Source: an uncultured Clostridia bacterium (lineage in GTDB: Bacteria; Bacillota; Clostridia; TANB77; CAG-508). From it: a stretch of DNA of 64,000 bases. Shown here in pieces: positions 12,754 through 25,164 of this stretch. Positions within the stretch are counted from its first letter, which is position 1; the number at the start of each line of letters is the position of its first letter. A program made the position numbers and the translations under genes. The DNA lies in the NCBI GenBank assembly GCA_944387505.1, contig CALXFG010000001.1:13167-77166 (forward strand), given 5' to 3'. A model generated the notes under the pieces. That model ran no database searches. It was not told the origin of the DNA and saw nothing but the letters and a program-made list of their open reading frames with translations.

Positions 12754-12918
12754 ATAAAAAGCCATTCGTATGAATGGCTTTTTCCGACGCGCTACATCTA
12801 CATATTTTCTCCTTGTAAGGCCAATATAAATAATATTATTCACTTATCTATTAAAATTAGACATTAAATTTCCAAAATGTACATAGTTTTTATAAAATTT
12901 TTCAAAAGTGTCTAATTT
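12754..12918. repeat. imperfect direct repeat, copy 1 (partner at 20011-20198)
   Basis: Shares the terminator hairpin ATAAAAAGCCATTCGtaTGAATGGCTTTTTcCGACG and the block TTATCTATTAAAATTAgACAtTAAATTT...GTACAtAGTTTTtATAAAA with the second copy. Confidence 0.7.
12756..12784 (+). terminator. rho-independent terminator of the V-ATPase operon
   Basis: AAAAAGCCATTC-GTAT-GAATGGCTTTTT is a perfect stem with flanking A/T runs. Confidence 0.8.
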
Positions 12919-15991: not shown

Positions 15992-16072
15992 TAAAGAGAG
16001 TGTGATATGACAAAAAACTAGTGGTGCAATTGTTCCACTAGTTTTTTGTTATTCCAAAAATAAGTTGATGTA

Positions 16073-16456
16073 CTACTCTTCTAAAAGCACTTCAATTAAT
16101 TCATACAGTCTAGATAATGAGGCAGGATATTTATAGTAAATTTTAGACAGTATTTCTTCAATGTCAATTGGCATGCCATCAGGTAGATAGTAATCAGGAT
16201 AGCTTCCCCTCATATTGTAACCTGCTCCTATCCTAAGACGTCGATAAGTAATACCTAGATTTCCAGAAAGTTTCCGTAAAATTTCATCGTTTGGTATTAT
16301 CTCCATTTTTTCGAGTTTCTCAACTTCTTCTGCAGTTACTTGGATTTTTTTAGCGACATCTTCATAAGACAAGTTCTTGTCTATTCGAGCTTGCCGTATC
16401 AAATCTCCAAAATTTCCAGGTTCTGGCGTTGCATTATAGAAAAAATGTTTTTCCAT
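16073..16456 (-). CDS. XRE-family HTH protein (127 aa)
   Basis: LIRQARIDKNLSYEDVAKKIQVTAEEVEKLE helix-turn-helix. GGAGG RBS. Confidence 0.75.
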   Translation of the reverse strand: MEKHFFYNATPEPGNFGDLIRQARIDKNLSYEDVAKKIQVTAEEVEKLEKMEIIPNDEILRKLSGNLGITYRRLRIGAGYNMRGSYPDYYLPDGMPIDIEEILSKIYYKYPASLSRLYELIEVLLEE

Positions 16457-16652
16457 AAAACTAATCCTCCTTCAACAAATAAATATTTATAGTTTCTAGT
16501 ATATTATATAATAAAATACTTATTATGTAAATAAAAAATTCTTTAACTCTACTTAACAATACCGACTTTATGCGAGAGAGCTGAAATTTTTTGAGGAAAT
16601 ACCTTGCTCTATTTTTATTTATGATACATTTTTCTATTTATATGGATTTGAA

Positions 16653-17429
16653 TTGCTAAAAGAATATGTACCATATAAAGAATTAGAAAAAACATATTCT
16701 TCTGAAGATGCACTTGTAAAAATAATGAAACGAGTTTATGAAGATAGTTTAGAAGAACTAATAGAAATACAACATAATTTTAAAGAATTTGTAGATTTTA
16801 TATATAACTTAAACGGAAATGAAAAATTAAAAGAATCTAAAATAAATTCTAAATTTATATCATTTTTAATTACTCATCAAAATGATGTATATACCTATTC
16901 AAGTGATATTGAAGTTATATTAGATACTTATTCAAATAAACACGAAGAATATTATAAGTATTCACTAGAAGAATTAACAAAACAACTTGATGAAAACGAT
17001 TCTTTAATTAAAATGACAAATGTATATACAAGTGAAAAGTTAAGTAATATTGCTTTTGTTGTTTTAGAACAGATTGTTAAGAATTATAATTTACCAATAA
17101 AAACATGCCAGTATTGTGGTAGATATTTTATTCCATCAATAAGGCAAGATGAATTATATTGTGATTTACCAAATAGAGATGGAAAAAGTTGTAGAGAAAA
17201 AGGAGCAAAACAGACATATAGAAAAAACTTAGAAAAAATACCAGCTTTATTAGAATATAGAAAAGCATATCAAAAGAAGTTTATGGAAGTTGCTAGAAGT
17301 GATAACAATAAAAAATTAAAAAAGGATTTTGATAATTGGAAAAAACTTGCTCAAAGTAAAATAAGAGATTATAAGCAAGGCAAAGTTACAGAAGATGAGT
17401 TGTATAAGTGGATAATGGAAAATAAGTAA
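16653..17429 (+). CDS. hypothetical Cys-rich protein common on Clostridial mobile DNA (DUF6076-like, from memory)
   Basis: CQYCGRYFIPSIRQDELYCD...SCREKGAKQTYRKN zinc-binding-like cluster. TTG start with no clear RBS, so it may be N-terminally truncated. Confidence 0.5.
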   Translation: MLKEYVPYKELEKTYSSEDALVKIMKRVYEDSLEELIEIQHNFKEFVDFIYNLNGNEKLKESKINSKFISFLITHQNDVYTYSSDIEVILDTYSNKHEEYYKYSLEELTKQLDENDSLIKMTNVYTSEKLSNIAFVVLEQIVKNYNLPIKTCQYCGRYFIPSIRQDELYCDLPNRDGKSCREKGAKQTYRKNLEKIPALLEYRKAYQKKFMEVARSDNNKKLKKDFDNWKKLAQSKIRDYKQGKVTEDELYKWIMENK

Positions 17430-17458
17430 AAAAATATCGCTAAATGCGAAAAAATATA

Positions 17459-17487
17459 TTGACATTGTACTTTTTATATGTTATAAA
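17459..17487 (+). promoter_or_regulatory. sigma-70-type promoter of the retron-like operon
   Basis: TTGACA (17459-17464), 17 nt spacer, TATAAA (17482-17487), with TG two nt upstream of the -10 box. Confidence 0.55.
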
Positions 17488-17493
17488 TAATAT

Positions 17494-17712
17494 GATTTAA
17501 CAAAATGTCCTTTCACCCAAATGATATTAGAGTAGAAATACTTGGGAGTGGCATCACTCAAACAATACCGGCATATGCTGATATTCCTTAGTTATATCTG
17601 ACTAACTAATATCAGCATAAGCCCGCGAAGGCGCTTGGTGACTCGCACCTTCGCGAGAAAAAAGATTAGTGAACTAATTAATCACATAACTTTCTTCTAC
17701 GGGTGACATCTC
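17494..17712 (+). ncRNA. structured non-coding RNA, candidate retron msr-msd
   Basis: G+C-rich patch in AT-rich DNA with no ORF. 17-bp two-part hairpin at 17574-17619. GC clamp hairpin CGCGAAGG/CCTTCGCG at 17624-17655. Possible end-pairing of ATGTC..CACCC (17505-17518) with GGGTGACAT (17701-17709). Lies directly upstream of a retron-type RT operon. Boundaries are approximate. Confidence 0.5.
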
Positions 17713-17751
17713 AAATAACAAAAATAGAGATGAGAAGGAGGTAAAAGAGCT

Positions 17752-17919
17752 ATGATTAAAAAACTCTTTAAAAAAGTTAAATCATTAATTAGTTCAGGTA
17801 AAAACAAATTAAAAAAAATATATAAGAAAAATAGAAAAAGCTTATATAAATTTTTAGGGAAAACATTTATCACAATAATTAAAATCATAGTTGAAAAATT
17901 ATTGGATAAATGGATGTAA
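17752..17919 (+). CDS. 55-aa highly cationic amphipathic peptide (below the ORF-track cutoff)
   Basis: MIKKLFKKVKSLISSGKNKLKKIYKKNRKSLYKFLGKTFITIIKIIVEKLLDKWM. AAGGAGG lies 10 nt upstream of the ATG. Sits between the ncRNA and the HTH gene. Confidence 0.45.
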   Translation: MIKKLFKKVKSLISSGKNKLKKIYKKNRKSLYKFLGKTFITIIKIIVEKLLDKWM

Positions 17920-17963
17920 TTACCAACTAATCTAAATTTCTTTTTATTAAGAGGTGAATTCTA

Positions 17964-18263
17964 ATGGGTGAAACTTTAAGATTATTAAGAATATTTTTCG
18001 GATATAAATCTGTGGAAATGGCTAAAAAGCTTAACATTTCACAGAGTTTTTTGTCTGAAATAGAAAACGATAAGAAAAAACCAACTTTAGATCTTTTACA
18101 GCAATATAGCAAGGTTCTTAATATAAAAGTTTCAACAATAATTTTATTGGCTGAATCTTTAGACAAGGATAAAAAGTCAAATAAAGATTTAAAACATAAT
18201 TTGGCAGGAATAGGTATGAAAGTTCTAAAGATTTTAAAAGAAAATGGTGAATTAGATGATTAA
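17964..18263 (+). CDS. XRE-family HTH protein (99 aa), translationally coupled to the RT
   Basis: LRIFFGYKSVEMAKKLNISQSFLSEIENDKKKPTLDLL HTH motif. RBS AGAGGTG. The stop overlaps the RT start (ATGATTAA). Confidence 0.8.
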   Translation: MGETLRLLRIFFGYKSVEMAKKLNISQSFLSEIENDKKKPTLDLLQQYSKVLNIKVSTIILLAESLDKDKKSNKDLKHNLAGIGMKVLKILKENGELDD

Positions 18264-19248
18264 AGAATATAACATTGAAAAAAGTCCTTTATATAGATTA
18301 AGAAATAAACAAAAATTAGCTGAACTTCTTGGGCTACCAAGAAATTATTTTAGAAAAATACATACTTATAAATATTCTGAATTTTTTCAAGATAAACCAG
18401 ATGGCTCTAAAAGAATAATTAATAATCCAGAATTCAAACTAAAAAAAATACAAAAAAGAATATTTAACTTATTAAATAGAATAGAAAAGCCAGAATGGGT
18501 TATTTCTGGAAAAAAAGGAAAGTCATATGTAGACAATGCTCGATTACATCAGTCAAAAAATAATGTATGTACAATAGACATAGAAAAATTTTATGATTCT
18601 ACTAAAGAAATATATGTATACAATTTCTTTAAATATACTATGCATATGTCAAAAGATGTTGCTGCTGTTTTAACTGATTTAGTTACATATAATGGTAAAA
18701 TTCCAACAGGAACTCCAACAAGTCAATTAGTTGCTTTCCTATCTTATAAAGATATATTTGTAAAAATCCATAATATGTGTAGTAGAAAAGAGATTTTATT
18801 TTCTTTATTTGTAGATGATATAACCTTATCTTCTGATAAGATTATTGATAAAAAGATAAAATATAAAATAAATACATTACTAAATTCAAAAGAATTACAT
18901 ATAAAAAAGACTAAAACTAAATTTTTTTCAATAAAAAGCAACAAATCTATTACAGGAACTATAATTGATTCTAAAAAAATGATAAGACTTGAAAATGCAA
19001 AAAGAAAAGAAATTATAGATTTATACAGGGAATGTATTAATCCAACTACTTATTTTATTGAAAAATTAGTAAGGCTTAATGGTAAGATAAGTGATGCAAA
19101 TCAAGTAGAGCCTGGAATTTTTTCATCGATTTCTGCATATTTAAAAAAGCACCAAGACGAAATTAAAAAATATAATATAGAACAAATTAAAAAAAGATAT
19201 TTTATTAAAAATATCATTAGAAAAAGGCAAAAACAAATATTAATTTAA
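18256..19248 (+). CDS. retron-type reverse transcriptase (330 aa)
   Basis: Ordered motifs PEFKLKKIQ, NARLH (NAxxH), CTIDIEKFYDS, IPTGTPTSQ, FVDDITLSS (catalytic xxDD) and SITGTII (VTG-like). No maturase, endonuclease or Cas domains. Confidence 0.85.
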   Translation: MIKEYNIEKSPLYRLRNKQKLAELLGLPRNYFRKIHTYKYSEFFQDKPDGSKRIINNPEFKLKKIQKRIFNLLNRIEKPEWVISGKKGKSYVDNARLHQSKNNVCTIDIEKFYDSTKEIYVYNFFKYTMHMSKDVAAVLTDLVTYNGKIPTGTPTSQLVAFLSYKDIFVKIHNMCSRKEILFSLFVDDITLSSDKIIDKKIKYKINTLLNSKELHIKKTKTKFFSIKSNKSITGTIIDSKKMIRLENAKRKEIIDLYRECINPTTYFIEKLVRLNGKISDANQVEPGIFSSISAYLKKHQDEIKKYNIEQIKKRYFIKNIIRKRQKQILI

Positions 19249-19266
19249 AATAATTATATAGAGCAG

Positions 19267-19947
19267 GTGATTTATATAAAACGAAGACTTAACATATTTA
19301 TTGATGAAAGTGGAGACTTTGGATTTGTAAAAGGTAGTTCAGAATTATATGCAGTGTCCTTTACAATACACGAAAGTGATAATCCTATAACAAATGAATT
19401 ACAATATTTGAATGATAGTTTAAATAAGCAAAACTATAATGGTATGCTCCATTTAGCTTATTTAATAGCGAAAAGAGATGATTATTCTAAATTTAATTTA
19501 GAACAAAGACAAAAAATATTTTGGACAATATTTAATTTTGCAAGAAAAGTACCTGTAAAATTAAAAACTATAATATTAGATAAACGATATATGAATAGTA
19601 AAAGCCAATTAAATAAAGCCATATCCATTGAAATAAATAAATTCATACAAGAAAATCAAAGTTATTTTGATTCGTTTGAAAAAATTGTAATATATTATGA
19701 TAATGGACAAGAGACTTTAGCAACAATTCTTGATATTGTTTTTGCTACAAATCAAAGAGTAGAAAGAAGAATTGAATTTGATCACACTAAAAAAAGACTA
19801 TTTCAAGTCTCTGATATGTTAACATTTGTTGATAAATTAGATTACAAATTTCATAATAATATGCCGTTTACTAGAGCAGAAAAGTATTTCTTTACAAATA
19901 AAGAAATTGAATACATAAAAAGGAAATTGAAAAATAAGAGATTATAA
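19267..19947 (+). CDS. DUF3800-like protein (putative effector)
   Basis: N-terminal NIFIDESGDFG and C-terminal LFQVSDMLTFV resemble the DESG ... QxxD signature I associate with DUF3800. GTG start 18 nt after the RT stop. Confidence 0.65.
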   Translation: MIYIKRRLNIFIDESGDFGFVKGSSELYAVSFTIHESDNPITNELQYLNDSLNKQNYNGMLHLAYLIAKRDDYSKFNLEQRQKIFWTIFNFARKVPVKLKTIILDKRYMNSKSQLNKAISIEINKFIQENQSYFDSFEKIVIYYDNGQETLATILDIVFATNQRVERRIEFDHTKKRLFQVSDMLTFVDKLDYKFHNNMPFTRAEKYFFTNKEIEYIKRKLKNKRL

Positions 19948-20010
19948 GAACTTGACCCACTACGCAATTAAAAATTGCGAGTGGGTACCCAAAAACCTTG
20001 TTATTGCATA

Positions 20011-20198
20011 ATAAAAAGCCATTCGTTTGAATGGCTTTTTGCGACGGCTACCGTCAGCACGGGTCAGGTCCTACTTAAGCTAAAACTATTTCAGACCCAG
20101 TAAATAATATTATTTATAATATATATTATTCATTTATCTATTAAAATTATACACTAAATTTTGAAAAAAGTACAGTATTTTCATAAAACTTTTCAGAA
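20011..20198. repeat. imperfect direct repeat, copy 2 (partner at 12754-12918)
   Basis: ATAAAAAGCCATTCGTTTGAATGGCTTTTTGCGACG ... ATTCATTTATCTATTAAAATTATACACTAAATTTT ... GTACAGTATTTTCATAAAAC aligns with copy 1. It has one extra ~40-nt G+C-rich insert. Confidence 0.7.
20013..20040 (+). terminator. rho-independent terminator after the DUF3800 gene
   Basis: AAAAAGCCATTC-GTTT-GAATGGCTTTTT. Confidence 0.75.
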
Positions 20199-20211
20199 AA
20201 TCCGAATTTTT

Positions 20212-20457
20212 TTATTGATTTTCAGTATTAAATATATCTGCAGACACTCCAAATATTTTAGCAAAAGCAAATAATTCAAAATCTTGTACTAACCTTTTAT
20301 TATTTTCAATTTTAGATATTTCTTTAGAAGTCAAGTCAATACCTTCTAATTGCAATTTTTCGGCTAAATCTTGTTGAGACATTTTATTTGCTTTTCGTAA
20401 TTCACTTAATTTATTTCCTGATATATTTCTAAATTTATTGTATTTTGTTATTTTCAT
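20212..20457 (-). CDS. XRE-family HTH regulator (81 aa)
   Basis: LSELRKANKMSQQDLAEKLQLEGIDLTSKEISKIENNKR. Divergent from 20604-22271. Confidence 0.8.
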   Translation of the reverse strand: MKITKYNKFRNISGNKLSELRKANKMSQQDLAEKLQLEGIDLTSKEISKIENNKRLVQDFELFAFAKIFGVSADIFNTENQ

Positions 20458-20603
20458 TATCTTACCTCATTCGCTTTATTAATGATTTAATTTTAATATT
20501 TAAAACATAAATCTTATCTCTAATAAAGCGATTTTTATTGACAAAAAAATAAGAGTATGAGAAAATAAAATAGATAAAATATACACTAAAGAAAGGATTT
20601 CAT

Positions 20604-22271
20604 ATGTACAGTATAGATAAAAGTTGGGTTGATACTCATATTAATAGTAATGGAGAGATTGTTATCCCTGAAGGAGTACAGCGTATAGAAAAAGGTGCGT
20701 TTGAAGGCAATGATAAAATTAAAAAAATTATAATGCCTAATAGTATTAACTTTATTGGGCCTAGAGCGTTTTCAGATTGCCGTAATTTACAAGAAGTTTC
20801 TTTTAGTAGTAATCTTCAAGTTTTAGGACAAAATTCATTCAGAAATTGTCCACAATTAAGACAAGTTGATATACCATCAAGTGTAAAAATTATATATCCT
20901 GGTACATTTGATGAAAATACTAGTTTAGAAAGTATTTCGTTAAGTGGAAAATTAGATTATTTGTCAGCAGATGCTTTTAGTAATTGTGATAATTTAAAAG
21001 AAGTACATATAGATGGTATAGAAAGAATTGATTATAATGCCTTTATGGGAAAAAGAAATATTAATAAAATTACTATTGATGGTCAAGAGTTTGTTCTAGA
21101 AGATAATGAACAATTATTTTCAGTTCAAAAAGTTGGTGAAAAAGTGGCTTTGGTTAAGCAATCTAAAGACAATGGGAAATTCTCGACTCAATGTATAAAT
21201 TTAGAAAAAAATACATCTAAAACTATTGGAAATAATGTATATTTGACTGATGATGGAAAAATGTGTTATGCAATAAATAGTTTGGCAAATACTTCTCTAA
21301 CTGTACTAGAACAATTTAAAAAATCTGGTTTAAGCCAATTATATATTTACGGTGGAGAAAATGAAATTACCCCAGACCAACACAGTGAAAGAATAAATTT
21401 TAACTTATACAATATAGATGATTTAATTCAAGTAAAATCACAAATAGAAGAAATAAAGAAAAAAATTATAATTCCAAATGTAAAAGAGCCGGGGAGAGAG
21501 AAAAAAATATATGGACAAATTGTTAAAATTTTAAGCGATAATATGCGATATGATGAAGTTGAAGTAGATGATGCAGCAAGATTGTCAAATAGAAATTTAT
21601 TAAGTTTGCTAAACGGCAAAGCAGTATGTCAAGGATATATTGAAGTGTTAAGAAATATTTCTGCAGAATATGGAATACAAGTTGAATCAGTTAGAGGTTC
21701 AATACCGGTGAATGGCAAAAAATCCTCACATGAATGGAGTCAAGTAAAATTAGATGGTATATGGTACGATGATGATTTTACAAATTATAGGGAAGCTTTA
21801 TCAACTAACAAGTTAGATTCATGTCATTGCTTTTTGATGGGAGCTAGATCTGATGGAGTATCGAGCACTAAATATGTAGGATACGAAACAAAACATAAAC
21901 TTCATAATGTTGGAAAAACACTATCTTTAGCTGATAAGAAATTTTTATTAAATTATGGTCGTATTCAACAACAATCAAAACAACAATCTATTCAACCACA
22001 AGAAAAAGAAAAGCCAGTTGAAGAATCTATAAAAGACGAAGTTGGAGATGAATTTAAGCCTAAAACTGAAGAAAAACAACAAAATGAACAAGAAGCTGAA
22101 ACAAAATGGATGCATAGCCTTCAAGCATGTGATGAGCAAGTAGCAAAAATGCAAGATGGTGCGAAGAAAAAACAAGAAGTCGTAAAATTAATTCAAAATT
22201 TAGAACAAGAAAAAAGACAGGAAAGAGATGGACAGATACAGGAAGAAAATCAAAACAATGAACAAAGGTAG
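20604..22271 (+). CDS. cytoplasmic BspA-type leucine-rich-repeat protein fused to a transglutaminase-like cysteine-protease core and a Q/E/K-rich tail
   Basis: Repeated I-P-x-x-V-x-x-I-x-x-x-A-F-x-x-C-x-x-L units in the first ~170 aa. Candidate C/H/D triad in CQGYIEVLRN ... SSHEWSQVKLDGIWYDDD. No signal peptide. Confidence 0.65.
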   Translation: MYSIDKSWVDTHINSNGEIVIPEGVQRIEKGAFEGNDKIKKIIMPNSINFIGPRAFSDCRNLQEVSFSSNLQVLGQNSFRNCPQLRQVDIPSSVKIIYPGTFDENTSLESISLSGKLDYLSADAFSNCDNLKEVHIDGIERIDYNAFMGKRNINKITIDGQEFVLEDNEQLFSVQKVGEKVALVKQSKDNGKFSTQCINLEKNTSKTIGNNVYLTDDGKMCYAINSLANTSLTVLEQFKKSGLSQLYIYGGENEITPDQHSERINFNLYNIDDLIQVKSQIEEIKKKIIIPNVKEPGREKKIYGQIVKILSDNMRYDEVEVDDAARLSNRNLLSLLNGKAVCQGYIEVLRNISAEYGIQVESVRGSIPVNGKKSSHEWSQVKLDGIWYDDDFTNYREALSTNKLDSCHCFLMGARSDGVSSTKYVGYETKHKLHNVGKTLSLADKKFLLNYGRIQQQSKQQSIQPQEKEKPVEESIKDEVGDEFKPKTEEKQQNEQEAETKWMHSLQACDEQVAKMQDGAKKKQEVVKLIQNLEQEKRQERDGQIQEENQNNEQR

Positions 22272-22779: not shown

Positions 22780-24006
22780 CTAATAATATTCTAACTCATC
22801 TTCTTGTTTTTCTATTTCAGAATTTTTTATATCCATTTGCCTTTTAACATCAAAATCCATATATGTTTCTTTTTCAAAATCTCTTATCAAATCTTCTTCA
22901 GATGGAGCAGAAAACTTATGGCAAATCCAACTAATAAACTTTTGAACTGTAATTTTAAATCTATCAATAACTTTCTTTAAATAATTATTTTCCTTTTCTA
23001 ATTTATTTATAATTTTCTGATATTGATAATCTATTTTATAAGTTTCATCTTCATATTTATTTTTTATTTCTTTTTCCTTTTGCTTAAAATCTAATTCAAG
23101 TTTTCTACATTTTGCTTTTAATTCAATATTGTCTGCTGTCAATGATTTTCTTTCTGTTTCAAATTTCTCTGCTTTATCAATAATATTAGCTTGTTTTGAT
23201 AATTCTTTATGCAATGAAATATTTTCTTGATGGAGTTTTTGTATTAATTCATCTTTTGGCTTAATAATCTCATTTTCTATTTTTTCATCTCTATTTAGCA
23301 TAATCTTTTTAATATCTTTTATATCAGGTGTTTCTGGAAGTTCCAATTTCATATCTTTTAATATTTGTTTAGTATTTTCGTAATTTGTAATTTGTTTATA
23401 CTCTTGTATTGAAAAATGTTCTCTATTTGTTATTTCTACTAATTCTCCTCTTTCTAACTTAAATCCTTTTTCAGAAATATGCTTAAAATATGCATTTTGT
23501 AAATCTCTATAACTATTTTTGCCTTTCCAAAAATCTCTAGAACAAATTTTATCAATTTTATTTCCTTGCTTATCTTTTGTATGAACTACTGGAATAAATA
23601 ACAAGTGCATATGTGGTGTATCTTCATCCATATGAACAACTGCTGATATAATATTTTCTTCTCCTAAATTTTTGTAATTGCATATAAAATTGTAACTTTC
23701 TTGAAAATATCTTTTACTTTCCTCATAGCCTATTTCATCAAAAAATTTTTGATCCGAAGTAAATACCATTTCACACATTATGATGCTATTACTTCTTATT
23801 TGGCCTTTTAAATTGTACTTTTCTTTGATTCTATCAAACTCTTTTATATAACTTAATTCGTTTTTCTTTATATAATAATTTAATTCTGTTTTACTACTAT
23901 CTATATTTTTGTTTGAATGATTTTTTGCTTTCCTTTCATTATGCCTATATGCTCCCATAGCTTTTGCTCTAGTTAATTTTTCATTTCTAATTATGGCATA
24001 GCTCAT
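22780..24006 (-). CDS. MobV-family (Mob_Pre) plasmid mobilization relaxase
   Basis: MSYAIIRNEKLTRAKAMGAYRHNERK ... VVHMDEDTPHMHLLFIPV N-terminal relaxase motifs with a coiled-coil C-half. The start is taken at the internal MSYAI Met (24006). Confidence 0.85.
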   Translation of the reverse strand: MSYAIIRNEKLTRAKAMGAYRHNERKAKNHSNKNIDSSKTELNYYIKKNELSYIKEFDRIKEKYNLKGQIRSNSIIMCEMVFTSDQKFFDEIGYEESKRYFQESYNFICNYKNLGEENIISAVVHMDEDTPHMHLLFIPVVHTKDKQGNKIDKICSRDFWKGKNSYRDLQNAYFKHISEKGFKLERGELVEITNREHFSIQEYKQITNYENTKQILKDMKLELPETPDIKDIKKIMLNRDEKIENEIIKPKDELIQKLHQENISLHKELSKQANIIDKAEKFETERKSLTADNIELKAKCRKLELDFKQKEKEIKNKYEDETYKIDYQYQKIINKLEKENNYLKKVIDRFKITVQKFISWICHKFSAPSEEDLIRDFEKETYMDFDVKRQMDIKNSEIEKQEDELEYY

Positions 24007-24058
24007 ATTTTTTTCCTTGTTCTCTCTTAAATTCACGAGATAAGATATTCTTGTCTAA

Positions 24059-24216: not shown

Positions 24217-25164
24217 CTACGAAGATGCTACTGCATTTTTGCTGGCAAAGTTAGCATATAAGCTGTCGAAAAATCCCTCTGGATATTTTCTTTCATAGTC
24301 ACGATTATATATAGTAGTTTTATTATTTGCTATATTATTTGTCGCTATATTTATATTAGGATTACCTAAATTATTATATAAGCAAATCATTAAATAATTT
24401 GTTATATTTTTAATACTATTATTATTTCTAGCAATATCTAATAATTGAATTAAGTTATTCTTATTAATTAAATAAATCTTTGACAATATTTTTGAATTAG
24501 TTATTATTACATTTCCTACTTTTAAATTATCTGCATAATATAATCTATCTATAACATCTTCTAATATTGACTGTTCTTCTTTGGTAAAATCATTTAATTT
24601 GCATTTTTCTTTTACATCATTTAATGAAATATTTTCTTCATTACTTTGAAGATTGATAGATTCAGTATTGATTATATTAGTTTTGATATTATTAGGATTG
24701 ATTGTAGGTAAATTTTCCATATCAAGAATTGTATTTTCTACTTCTGCAGAACCGTAATTTTTACTGTTCAAGACTTGTAAATTTTCCGTACCTACAAAAT
24801 TCTTTATATTTTCATGCTGTATTTTTCCAACATATATTAAATTAGGTTTCCCTAACCCTTGTCTCTTTTCTGCAATTAAATTAACATCATTTAATTGTTT
24901 AAATGCTTTTGTAACAGTCTTTTCAGATAAGCAAAGTTTGTTTTGTAGTTCTTCTCTTGTAAATATTAAATAAACTCTACCTTCTTTATCAAACCAATGA
25001 TTTTTTTGTGATAAAAATAATCTATCAAGTAGAAAAGCATATAATATTTTACTATCTGAATTTAATTTTTCTTTATACAAGCTATTAATAAATAATTCTT
25101 GTGGTATCTGATAATATTTATTATTCAATGTTTCATTTATTTTATAAAAATCTATTTCGTTCAT
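24217..25164 (-). CDS. RepA_N-family plasmid replication initiator
   Basis: YYQIPQELF...LNSDSKILYAFLLDRLFLSQKNHWFDKEGRVYLIFTREELQNKLCLSEKTVTKAFKQL...RQGLGKPNLIY is the characteristic N-terminal domain of Firmicute RepA_N proteins. Confidence 0.8.
   Translation of the reverse strand: MNEIDFYKINETLNNKYYQIPQELFINSLYKEKLNSDSKILYAFLLDRLFLSQKNHWFDKEGRVYLIFTREELQNKLCLSEKTVTKAFKQLNDVNLIAEKRQGLGKPNLIYVGKIQHENIKNFVGTENLQVLNSKNYGSAEVENTILDMENLPTINPNNIKTNIINTESINLQSNEENISLNDVKEKCKLNDFTKEEQSILEDVIDRLYYADNLKVGNVIITNSKILSKIYLINKNNLIQLLDIARNNNSIKNITNYLMICLYNNLGNPNINIATNNIANNKTTIYNRDYERKYPEGFFDSLYANFASKNAVASS

Follow-up and report, generated by a model that had tools for sequence, protein, structure and literature searches.

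A probable Type VI retron on a mobilizable island of an uncultured Clostridia bacterium and its separate DUF3800 neighbour

The window analysed here, a stretch of 64,000 nucleotides (nt) from an uncultured Clostridia bacterium, contains on its plus strand a compact gene group that the initial annotation, made from the sequence alone, had described as a retron-like operon of five parts. A promoter (17459–17487) consisting of a TTGACA box (17459–17464), a 17-nt spacer and a TATAAA box (17482–17487) is followed by a non-coding leader of ~258 nt, the open reading frame (ORF) of a small protein (SP) of 55 amino acids (aa) at 17752–17919, a gene for a 99-aa Cro/C1-type helix-turn-helix (HTH) protein (17964–18263), a gene for a 330-aa reverse transcriptase (RT, 18256–19248) and a 226-aa ORF for a DUF3800 protein (19267–19947). 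The annotated ORF coordinates and RT motifs (PEFKLKKIQ, NARLH, DIEKFYDS, TGTPTSQ, the catalytic FVDD and ITG), the promoter, the 8-nt overlap of the RT ATG with the HTH stop (ATGATTAA) and the 18-nt distance from the RT stop to the DUF3800 ORF, which holds for the listed GTG start, were all found as described in the sequence or its translation. The promoter had been placed about 250 nt before the HTH gene, whereas it lies 505 nt before the HTH ATG and 293 nt before the ATG of the peptide. The analyses described below indicate that the 17432–19261 part of the window is very probably a complete Type VI retron and that the DUF3800 gene is not a component of it.

The recognition of a retron was borne out by the profile searches that the annotation had suggested for the RT, DUF3800 and HTH proteins, in which RVT_1, DUF3800 and HTH_3 each exceeded the Pfam gathering score. 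The RT matched RVT_1 with an E value of 8.6e-12, and among the PADLOC models RT_VI was the best (E 1.8e-81, 271.5 bits, profile positions 1–274 of 279), 130 bits ahead of the second-best model (141.5 bits). The HTH protein matched PADLOC HTH_VI (E 7.5e-28, profile positions 2–89 of 92) and Pfam HTH_3 (E 3.8e-11). In the published classification, Type VI is defined by a clade-3 RT associated with a Cro/C1 HTH protein (cluster 2_1, 91–110 aa), whose gene directly precedes or overlaps that of the RT, and with small accessory proteins (Mestre et al., 2020; PMC7736814); the same source agrees with the annotation in that HTH proteins mark type VI and DUF3800 proteins type VII. Both proteins also have relatives in the Type VI retron of Yersinia phage vB_YenM_56.17, the RT sharing 35% identity (254 aa aligned, E 6e-41) with the retron-type RT of this phage and the HTH protein likewise 35% with its HTH counterpart. 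An enzyme of the abortive infection (Abi), defence-associated RT (DRT, unknown group or UG), diversity-generating retroelement (DGR) or group II intron type, accompanied by an unrelated upstream structure, could be suspected from the Pfam result, which on its own gives only the generic RVT_1, and from the NCBIfam retron models, which stayed below their cutoffs. However, these sub-threshold NCBIfam matches were exclusively to retron RT families, the 25 best PADLOC matches were all retron RT models with RT_VI far in front, maturase, endonuclease and Cas1 domains are absent from the 330-aa protein, and the RT is obligately linked to a Type VI HTH gene. A non-retron enzyme is thus extremely improbable.

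The 55-aa ORF is preceded by the Shine-Dalgarno (SD) sequence GAGAAGGAGGT, which is invariant across the aligned loci, and in one lineage (L098) it contains in-frame indels of 6 and 9 nt; both features mark it as genuinely coding. The SP includes 18 K/R versus 2 D/E residues. Its N-terminal half is basic and amphipathic, the hydrophobic moment reaching 0.76, and residues 33–50 make up a hydrophobic C-terminal helix or stretch. No match was obtained for the SP among the PADLOC and NCBIfam profiles. Its length (as in Vpa2), its position before the HTH gene, its basic N-half and its hydrophobic C-terminal helix agree with the descriptions of Type VI accessory SPs, among which the clusters cl2075, cl2760, cl3272 and cl3897 have been named. 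Since Type VI systems carry a toxic SP at this position, the cationic peptide is the expected effector of the type, that is, a predicted toxin embedded in the RNA described below.

The linkage of these genes was followed in related loci. The RT had 125 homologues at E≤1e-10 in a protein collection, and 80 loci with its best genomic relatives were obtained by scanning 185,579 species genomes; Clostridia predominate among them (Lachnospiraceae, Oscillospiraceae and others), and the remainder come from Alphaproteobacteria and other phyla. An HTH homologue lies immediately 5′ of the RT gene in about 76 of the 80 loci, and an SP homologue was found by phmmer in 23. Enough upstream sequence for a further check was available in 74 loci, and in 71 of these the HTH gene is closely preceded by the end of a small ORF on the plus strand, the product of which is basic in its N-half and has a hydrophobic helix at its C-terminus. 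All eight close lineages, which were obtained by exact protein look-up or metagenome scan, encode a 50–55-aa SP, a 96–99-aa HTH protein and the RT. Among retron-linked loci the SP and the HTH protein (82–91% and 83–84% identity, respectively) are better conserved than the RT (72–76%). The order non-coding RNA (ncRNA), SP, HTH, RT is the published organization of Type VI retrons, as in Retron-Vpa2/Eco12 (Zhang et al., bioRxiv 10.1101/2025.10.22.683967) and Retron-Sen3 (Garcia-Rodriguez et al., bioRxiv 10.64898/2026.04.27.721009). Consequently, the locus is a Clostridial representative of the described Type VI retrons and not the undescribed defence system that had been proposed: an identical architecture with a described type and phenotype exists for four of the five supposed parts. 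The statement that no such system was known from Clostridia is right for characterized systems, but not for genomic relatives, most of the best 80 being Clostridial.

The genes located 3′ of the RT vary among the 80 loci (Eco57I-type methylase, ParA, DUF2806, AbiJ and others). A recurrent neighbour of many Lachnospiraceae Type VI retrons (L003–L022) is a conserved protein of ~495–505 aa with Eco57I/N6_Mtase methyltransferase domains, encoded in the same orientation at positions ~+5 to +1513 relative to the RT stop. Two loci assigned to different phyla, one in a metagenome-assembled genome (MAG) of an uncultured Clostridia bacterium (L001) and the other in a MAG of Candidatus Gastranaerophilales (L002), contain near-identical retrons with the same SP and HTH match scores; either the element was recently transferred horizontally or one of the loci was wrongly binned. 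The plasmid database contained no nucleotide match to 17459–19947.

The leader, which the annotation had rightly pointed out as a GC-rich and hairpin-dense segment behind the promoter, has a GC content of 35–38% versus a background of ~22% and forms one of two GC peaks. Compared with dinucleotide-shuffled sequences its predicted fold is unusually stable (z −7.7 for 17490–17760), and the z value decreases to −9.9 if the leader and the SP ORF are folded together (17494–17965, ~470 nt). The 322 nt preceding the SP ATG show 84–90% nucleotide identity in loci where the RT proteins are only ~68–77% identical; this leader is thus more conserved than the enzyme, which is the signature of a functional RNA. 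The promoter and the 5′-end of the transcript are kept even in loci whose RT is ~45% identical. We refer to the ~470-nt transcript as the hybrid RNA, of which 17494–17751 is the msr-msd-like non-coding 5′ part. No Rfam 15 family was assigned to it at E≤1 when the 16000–21000 region was scanned.

A consensus fold of the hybrid RNA was built with RNAalifold on 11 loci and contains 22 pairs with compensatory changes. From 5′ to 3′ it includes two short hairpins (17530–17543 and 17546–17559), a long hairpin with a variable apex (17570–17623), the apex being wholly replaced in one lineage with the pairing kept, and a GC hairpin (17624–17655) supported by CG/AU/UA covariation. The latter two, spanning ~17567–17657, are likely to form the template of the multicopy single-stranded DNA (msDNA), as judged by analogy with the msDNAs of Vpa2. 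Next to them lies the first arm of a long-range inverted repeat (IR1, 17656–17670), whose partner IR2 (17926–17941) is located in the intergenic region just past the SP stop and closes the SP arm of the RNA. One pair of this helix shows UA/CG covariation, and the intergenic ACUAAUCUA is invariant in both clades compared. Between the arms, a pyrimidine tract (anti-SD, 17689–17698) pairs with the SP Shine-Dalgarno (17733–17742) and a covarying hairpin surrounds the SP AUG. The ribosome-binding site (RBS) of the SP is paired in every predicted fold. Two further helices join distant parts of the RNA: P2 (17513–17518 with 17701–17706) and P1 (17494–17501 with 17776–17783), the latter connecting the 5′-end of the transcript to codons 9–11 of the SP.

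P1 and P2 were tested across clades by adding a Lachnospiraceae clade with RTs ~45% identical, in which the same landmarks were seen. P2 reads UCACCC/GGGUGA in the clade of the window and CCAUCC/GGAUGG in the Lachnospiraceae clade. Together the two helices were 99.2% paired with compensatory changes at 5 of 14 pairs, slid registers were far worse and none of 500 shuffles matched the score; P1 by itself, in the within-clade and the cross-clade tests, was 98.7–98.9% paired and had three compensatory pairs. Considering P1, P2 and the helices of the consensus fold, the translation start of the SP is enclosed by a conserved fold, as it is in the published hybrid RNA. Two other pairings did not withstand the comparison. 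The pairing of a 5′ UCCUUUC with the SP SD, which appeared in the single-sequence minimum free energy fold, was rejected because its 5′ side varies although the SD is invariant, and the consensus anti-SD was preferred; a pairing of the 5′ UCACC with the SD of the HTH gene was unsupported across clades, the pairing with GGGUGA of P2 covarying instead. The complement of the 5′ UCACCC box occurs twice in the RNA, in the loop of the GC hairpin (17637–17641) and in the 3′ arm of P2, and both copies are jointly replaced by GGAUGG in the Lachnospiraceae loci, in which the 5′ box reads CCAUCC. The duplication suggests alternative pairings and recalls the 'direct repeats in loop regions' of Vpa2.

The borders of the retron were given by three loci. 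One of them (L101) matches 16620–17431 of the window and then resumes directly at 19262–20193, without a retron; another (L084) shares with the window only 17428–19225; in the third (L100) an unrelated 1.75-kb gene occupies the same slot between flanks that are 96% and 94% identical. The stop codon of the DUF6076 gene upstream is at 17427–17429. These breakpoints indicate that the retron is a 1.83-kb cassette (17432–19261, from the promoter region to just beyond the RT stop) inserted before an already present DUF3800 module. The place between the DUF6076 gene and the DUF3800 module (edges at 17427–17432 and 19244–19262) behaves as a cargo slot, which is empty in L101, contains the retron in the window and in L081, and contains another gene in L100. 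No recombinase or repeats that could explain the exchange of cassettes were seen at the slot.

The product of the DUF3800 gene matched Pfam DUF3800 (PF12686) with an E value of 2e-5 and 25.8 bits versus a cutoff of 21, and both D13 with E14 and the QxxD motif (Q180-V-S-D183) are invariant in the family alignment. Its AlphaFold2 (AF2) model (pLDDT 84, pTM 0.80) resembles RNase HII, H3 and H2 structures, which were the best fold matches of Foldseek in the PDB (E 7e-5 to 4e-4, TM 0.41–0.48), in agreement with earlier modelling of the family as RNase H-like (PMC7736814). The protein had no PADLOC match at E≤0.1, the retron-associated DUF3800 models included, and none in NCBIfam; a sequence search of the PDB with the DUF3800 profile found nothing, and the phage database contained no DUF3800 match. 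The translation start of the gene is uncertain: the GTG at 19267 sits within an SD-like AGGTGA and the ATG or TTG starts of distant homologues align with ATA at 19276. The surrounding AAAGTAGGTGATT..ATA AAA CGA (19258–19280) is conserved in this DUF3800 clade, and the non-canonical appearance of the start in the clade suggests weak or regulated initiation. An additional nested hairpin of ~33 nt (GACCCACTACGCAATTAAAAATTGCGAGTGGGT) at 19954–19986, between the DUF3800 stop and the terminator, was shared only with L100 among the fetched loci.

A conserved element of ~150 nt follows almost every fetched DUF3800 gene at its 3′ side and was found by nhmmer in 76 loci. In the window it corresponds to a candidate structured small RNA (sRNA) of ~127 nt, which lies on the minus strand (20013–20151), is convergent with the DUF3800 gene and is not part of the retron. 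A nearly invariant TATAAT (20151–20146) would serve as −10 box together with a −35-like T.TAC box (20174–20169), giving a predicted start near 20139 and an end at 20013, where a bidirectional terminator (stem 20018–20035) with A- and T-runs on the two sides is common to the sRNA and the DUF3800 gene. When 35 diverse copies were aligned and the minus strand was read, the TATAAT was seen to be followed by an AT-rich 5′ part that contains a covarying palindrome, by a pair of covarying GC hairpins that surround an invariant ACCCG, and finally by the terminator hairpin. The RNAalifold helices have 12 compensatory pairs. On the minus strand the helices were 98.6% paired with 82 G.U pairs, as opposed to 88.7% and 2 G.U pairs on the plus strand, and this asymmetry points to an RNA transcribed from the minus strand from ~20139 to 20013. 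The sRNA was assigned to no Rfam 15 family, only chance matches driven by the terminator being obtained at E≤10 for 19940–20260, and no Rfam match reached the gathering score in 17 DUF3800 loci.

Two possible roles of this element were rejected. As an antisense regulator of the DUF3800 start it should have paired best there, but the mean RNAduplex energy was −15.5 versus −16.2 in control windows of the coding sequence, and the start region beat all control windows in only 4% of 45 loci. An attachment (att) site or island boundary is contradicted by L081, where the element is inside the mobile element, and by the G.U asymmetry, which argues for an RNA. A decayed copy is present at 12755–12895, immediately behind the chromosomal gene for V-ATPase subunit D. 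This copy has retained the terminator and the AT-rich part, its GC hairpins are disrupted, and it probably represents the left scar or edge of a 12.9–25.2 kb island. We are inclined to regard the DUF3800 protein and its convergent sRNA as an uncharacterized, widespread protein–RNA system with an uncatalogued RNA family, although with less confidence than we have in the identity of the retron.

The suggestion that all five parts form one system was examined by comparing homologous loci, as had also been proposed in the initial annotation. The ncRNA, the 55-aa peptide, the HTH protein and the RT do belong together, SP, HTH and RT recurring jointly, but the DUF3800 gene does not regularly accompany them. 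No DUF3800 homologue was present in any of the 80 RT-related genome loci, and a retron was found in only one of 80 metagenomic loci encoding a 50–97% identical DUF3800. Four of the eight close lineages have a DUF3800 gene after the RT (P0003, P0009, P0011 and L126), but in the other four, P0019 (the most abundant), P0018, P0016 and P0030, the RT is followed by nothing or by convergent genes, by the gene pair of a restriction-modification system, or by a methylase or integrase gene. The DUF3800 protein has 945 homologues, more than 120 of them above 66% identical, and its 90% cluster has 129 members compared with 9 for the RT. Its upstream neighbours fall into 33 clusters over 62 loci (Hypoth_Ymh, OLD-type ATPase-TOPRIM, IrrE-HTH, DUF4435/AAA_21, AAA+, DUF6076 and others). 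The DUF3800 of the window is 97% identical to the retron-free copy of L100 but only 60–63% to those of the other retron-linked loci, in which the DUF3800 proteins (84–92%) co-diverge with their own RTs (79–89%).

Several points weigh against the identification of the locus as a complete Type VI retron without the DUF3800 gene. In the window and in the four lineages mentioned the DUF3800 gene lies 3′ of the RT in the same orientation, after a spacer of 18–31 nt and without a terminator, and the lack of a terminator together with the SD-sized spacer makes co-expression of RT and DUF3800 likely. The assignment of the RT to Type VI is based on profile scores, the resemblance of the RNA and the SP to their Vpa2 and Sen3 counterparts is architectural, and msDNA production, toxicity of the SP and anti-phage defence are attributed to the window locus by analogy. 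In addition, the SP SD and the 5′ UCACCC box of the hybrid RNA can each pair in more than one way.

The first of these points would suit a composite five-part system, a hybrid of types VI and VII, in which the DUF3800 protein served as a second effector or as a partner processing the msDNA. It would also be consistent with the RNase HII-like fold, with DUF3800 being the partner in Type VII, and with the two DUF3800 clades that occupy the position behind the RT, from which it follows that the RT/DUF3800 junction was formed or replaced more than once. Nevertheless, the mutual absence in the 80 RT-related loci and in 79 of the 80 DUF3800 loci, the different genes after the RT in half of the close lineages, the DUF3800 module standing directly behind DUF6076 with the slot empty or filled by other cargo, the failure to match the retron-associated DUF3800 models and the kept glutamine of QxxD all speak against it. 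Moreover, the DUF3800 gene has its own conserved sRNA, the hairpin variant of which tracks the DUF3800 clade and not the retron. Comparative genomics appears to have largely refuted the composite system already, and we regard it as improbable. It is equally hard to credit that the repeated placement of DUF3800 and its sRNA behind this retron clade was selected, with DUF3800 acting on an RNA–DNA hybrid or msDNA or the two forming a layered defence unit. The DUF3800 gene and the sRNA (19267 to ~20151) probably just share the cargo slot with the retron and receive read-through transcription.

The mobile context that the annotation had supposed was also found: a Mob_Pre relaxase gene (22780–24036) and a RepA_N gene (24217–25164) are on the same island, whose chromosomal neighbours are V-ATPase genes on one side and DUF2207/HtrA genes on the other. 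An integrase was not seen in this copy of the island. Between the DUF3800 module and the relaxase gene, the 20604–22271 region encodes a BspA-type protein of 555 aa, which has leucine-rich repeats (LRR_5, E 7.8e-40) and a long acidic, glutamine-rich tail.

The characterized Type VI systems offer two models of function for the separate retron. In Retron-Vpa2 the RT, the HTH protein and the RNA form a complex in which HTH represses reverse transcription, and msDNA accumulating in response to phage triggers, which are lambda Red-type recombination proteins, derepresses translation of the SP (bioRxiv 10.1101/2025.10.22.683967). Transferred to the window, one promoter would give a ~470-nt hybrid RNA with the reverse-transcription template and the SP ORF, followed by HTH and RT. 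The SP would be a toxin whose translation is prevented by the fold of the RNA, and the HTH protein would bind the RT and the RNA and restrain reverse transcription. Phage infection would then allow msDNA to accumulate, templated most likely by the hairpins at 17570–17623 and 17624–17655, and the msDNA would remodel the RNA so that the SP is translated and growth of the infected cell stops. The RT and HTH families, the co-conservation of the four parts, the constraint on the RNA, the covarying helices enclosing the SP start, the predicted SD pairing and the cassette boundaries are established at this locus; for the Vpa2-like mechanism as a whole, which is drawn by analogy, we consider the case evenly balanced.

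In Retron-Sen3 the HTH protein and the SP form a toxin–antitoxin pair (bioRxiv 10.64898/2026.04.27.721009). A similar control in the window would mean a constitutively made SP neutralized post-translationally by the HTH antitoxin, constitutive cDNA, and loss of a host surveillance function of the RecBCD type as the trigger. Sen3 has the same gene order and an RBS sequestered in the fold, yet its SP is made constitutively, and the SP and HTH proteins being the most conserved ones in the window lineage, as among the relatives of Sen3, fits a co-evolving toxin–antitoxin pair. However, the window SP has 55 aa as that of Vpa2 and is without the ~25-residue N-terminal extension of the SPs of the cl2075 lineage, and the invariant anti-SD/SD pairing and the covarying AUG hairpin argue for translational control. 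Furthermore, Firmicutes use AddAB instead of RecBCD. The cl2075 lineage is found mainly in Beta- and Gammaproteobacteria, and only the 'Large' lineage, which includes Vpa2, is taxonomically broad (bioRxiv 10.64898/2026.04.27.721009). Sen3-like control is thus possible but rather unlikely. By analogy with both systems, the HTH protein may repress reverse transcription, serve as the antitoxin of the SP, or both.

The locus extends Type VI, until now studied in Proteobacteria only, by a well-populated Clostridial lineage from gut metagenomes. The toxin ORF within the template RNA, the paired RBS and the closing helices persist down to ~45% RT identity, which supports the view that the hybrid-RNA design is general to Type VI, and the clean boundaries of the 1.83-kb cassette would serve the transplanting of the system. 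The neighbourhood also illustrates that adjacency within a cargo hot-spot is no evidence of one system. The DUF3800–sRNA unit is the less explained object of the two, the role of DUF3800–RNA pairs having been unexplained since 2017.

Among known elements, the sRNA is comparable with the DUF3800-I to -XI motifs. Many unrelated structured RNAs adjoin DUF3800 genes in either orientation, often with terminators (Weinberg et al., 2017; PMC5737381), and the window sRNA likewise adjoins DUF3800, in the opposite orientation, and ends in a Rho-independent terminator; it differs in that no family of Rfam 15 corresponds to it, up to E≤10, the motifs of that paper having been compared via Rfam only. Type VII retrons resemble the locus in encoding a DUF3800/RNase H2-like protein beside the retron RT, but their RT belongs to another clade and their DUF3800s are without the conserved Q of the C-terminal QxxD (PMC7736814), unlike the window protein, which keeps this Q as ordinary DUF3800 proteins do, has no PADLOC match and is not conserved with the RT.

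The retron of Yersinia phage vB_YenM_56.17 (OM046627.1) consists of a 54-aa basic and hydrophobic ORF, a gene for a 105-aa HTH protein (HTH_VI, 121 bits) overlapping that of a 310-aa RT (RT_VI, 346 bits; annotated as 'retron-type RNA-directed DNA polymerase') and a structured leader of ~350 nt (z −4.0). In contrast to the mobilizable-island cargo of the window, it is a moron between the P2-type tail genes gpS and gpV, and its SP has no detectable sequence similarity to that of the window, although the two agree in their basic N-half and hydrophobic C-terminus. Sen3 and the cl2075 retrons share with the window the SP–HTH–RT order with an HTH–RT overlap, an ncRNA located no more than ~280 nt from the SP start, a long stem-loop inside this RNA whose apex varies, a paired SP RBS, an IR1–IR2 helix whose second arm is just past the SP stop, and an SP and HTH that are better conserved than the RT (bioRxiv 10.64898/2026.04.27.721009). 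Their SPs are 75–79 aa long with an N-terminal extension as opposed to 55 aa in the window, and their lineage is proteobacterial.

Retron-Vpa2 and Retron-Eco12 were compared with the locus by their published description. Their hosts are Vibrio and E. coli in contrast to the low-GC, Clostridia-type window, and their catalytic box is YADD in place of FVDD. In Vpa2 a hybrid RNA of ~470 nt contains the msr-msd and a translationally repressed toxic SP of 55 residues, and msDNAs of 63 and 86 nt are formed (bioRxiv 10.1101/2025.10.22.683967). Similarly, the window has a promoter, a ~470-nt RNA with an msr-msd-like part and the SP ORF, then HTH and RT. The SP is of the same length with a hydrophobic C-terminal core, and its RBS and AUG are within stem-loops. 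In both cases a box is repeated in loops and long-range inverted repeats tie the region behind the SP to the msr-msd arm, so that the '3′ end wraps back'.

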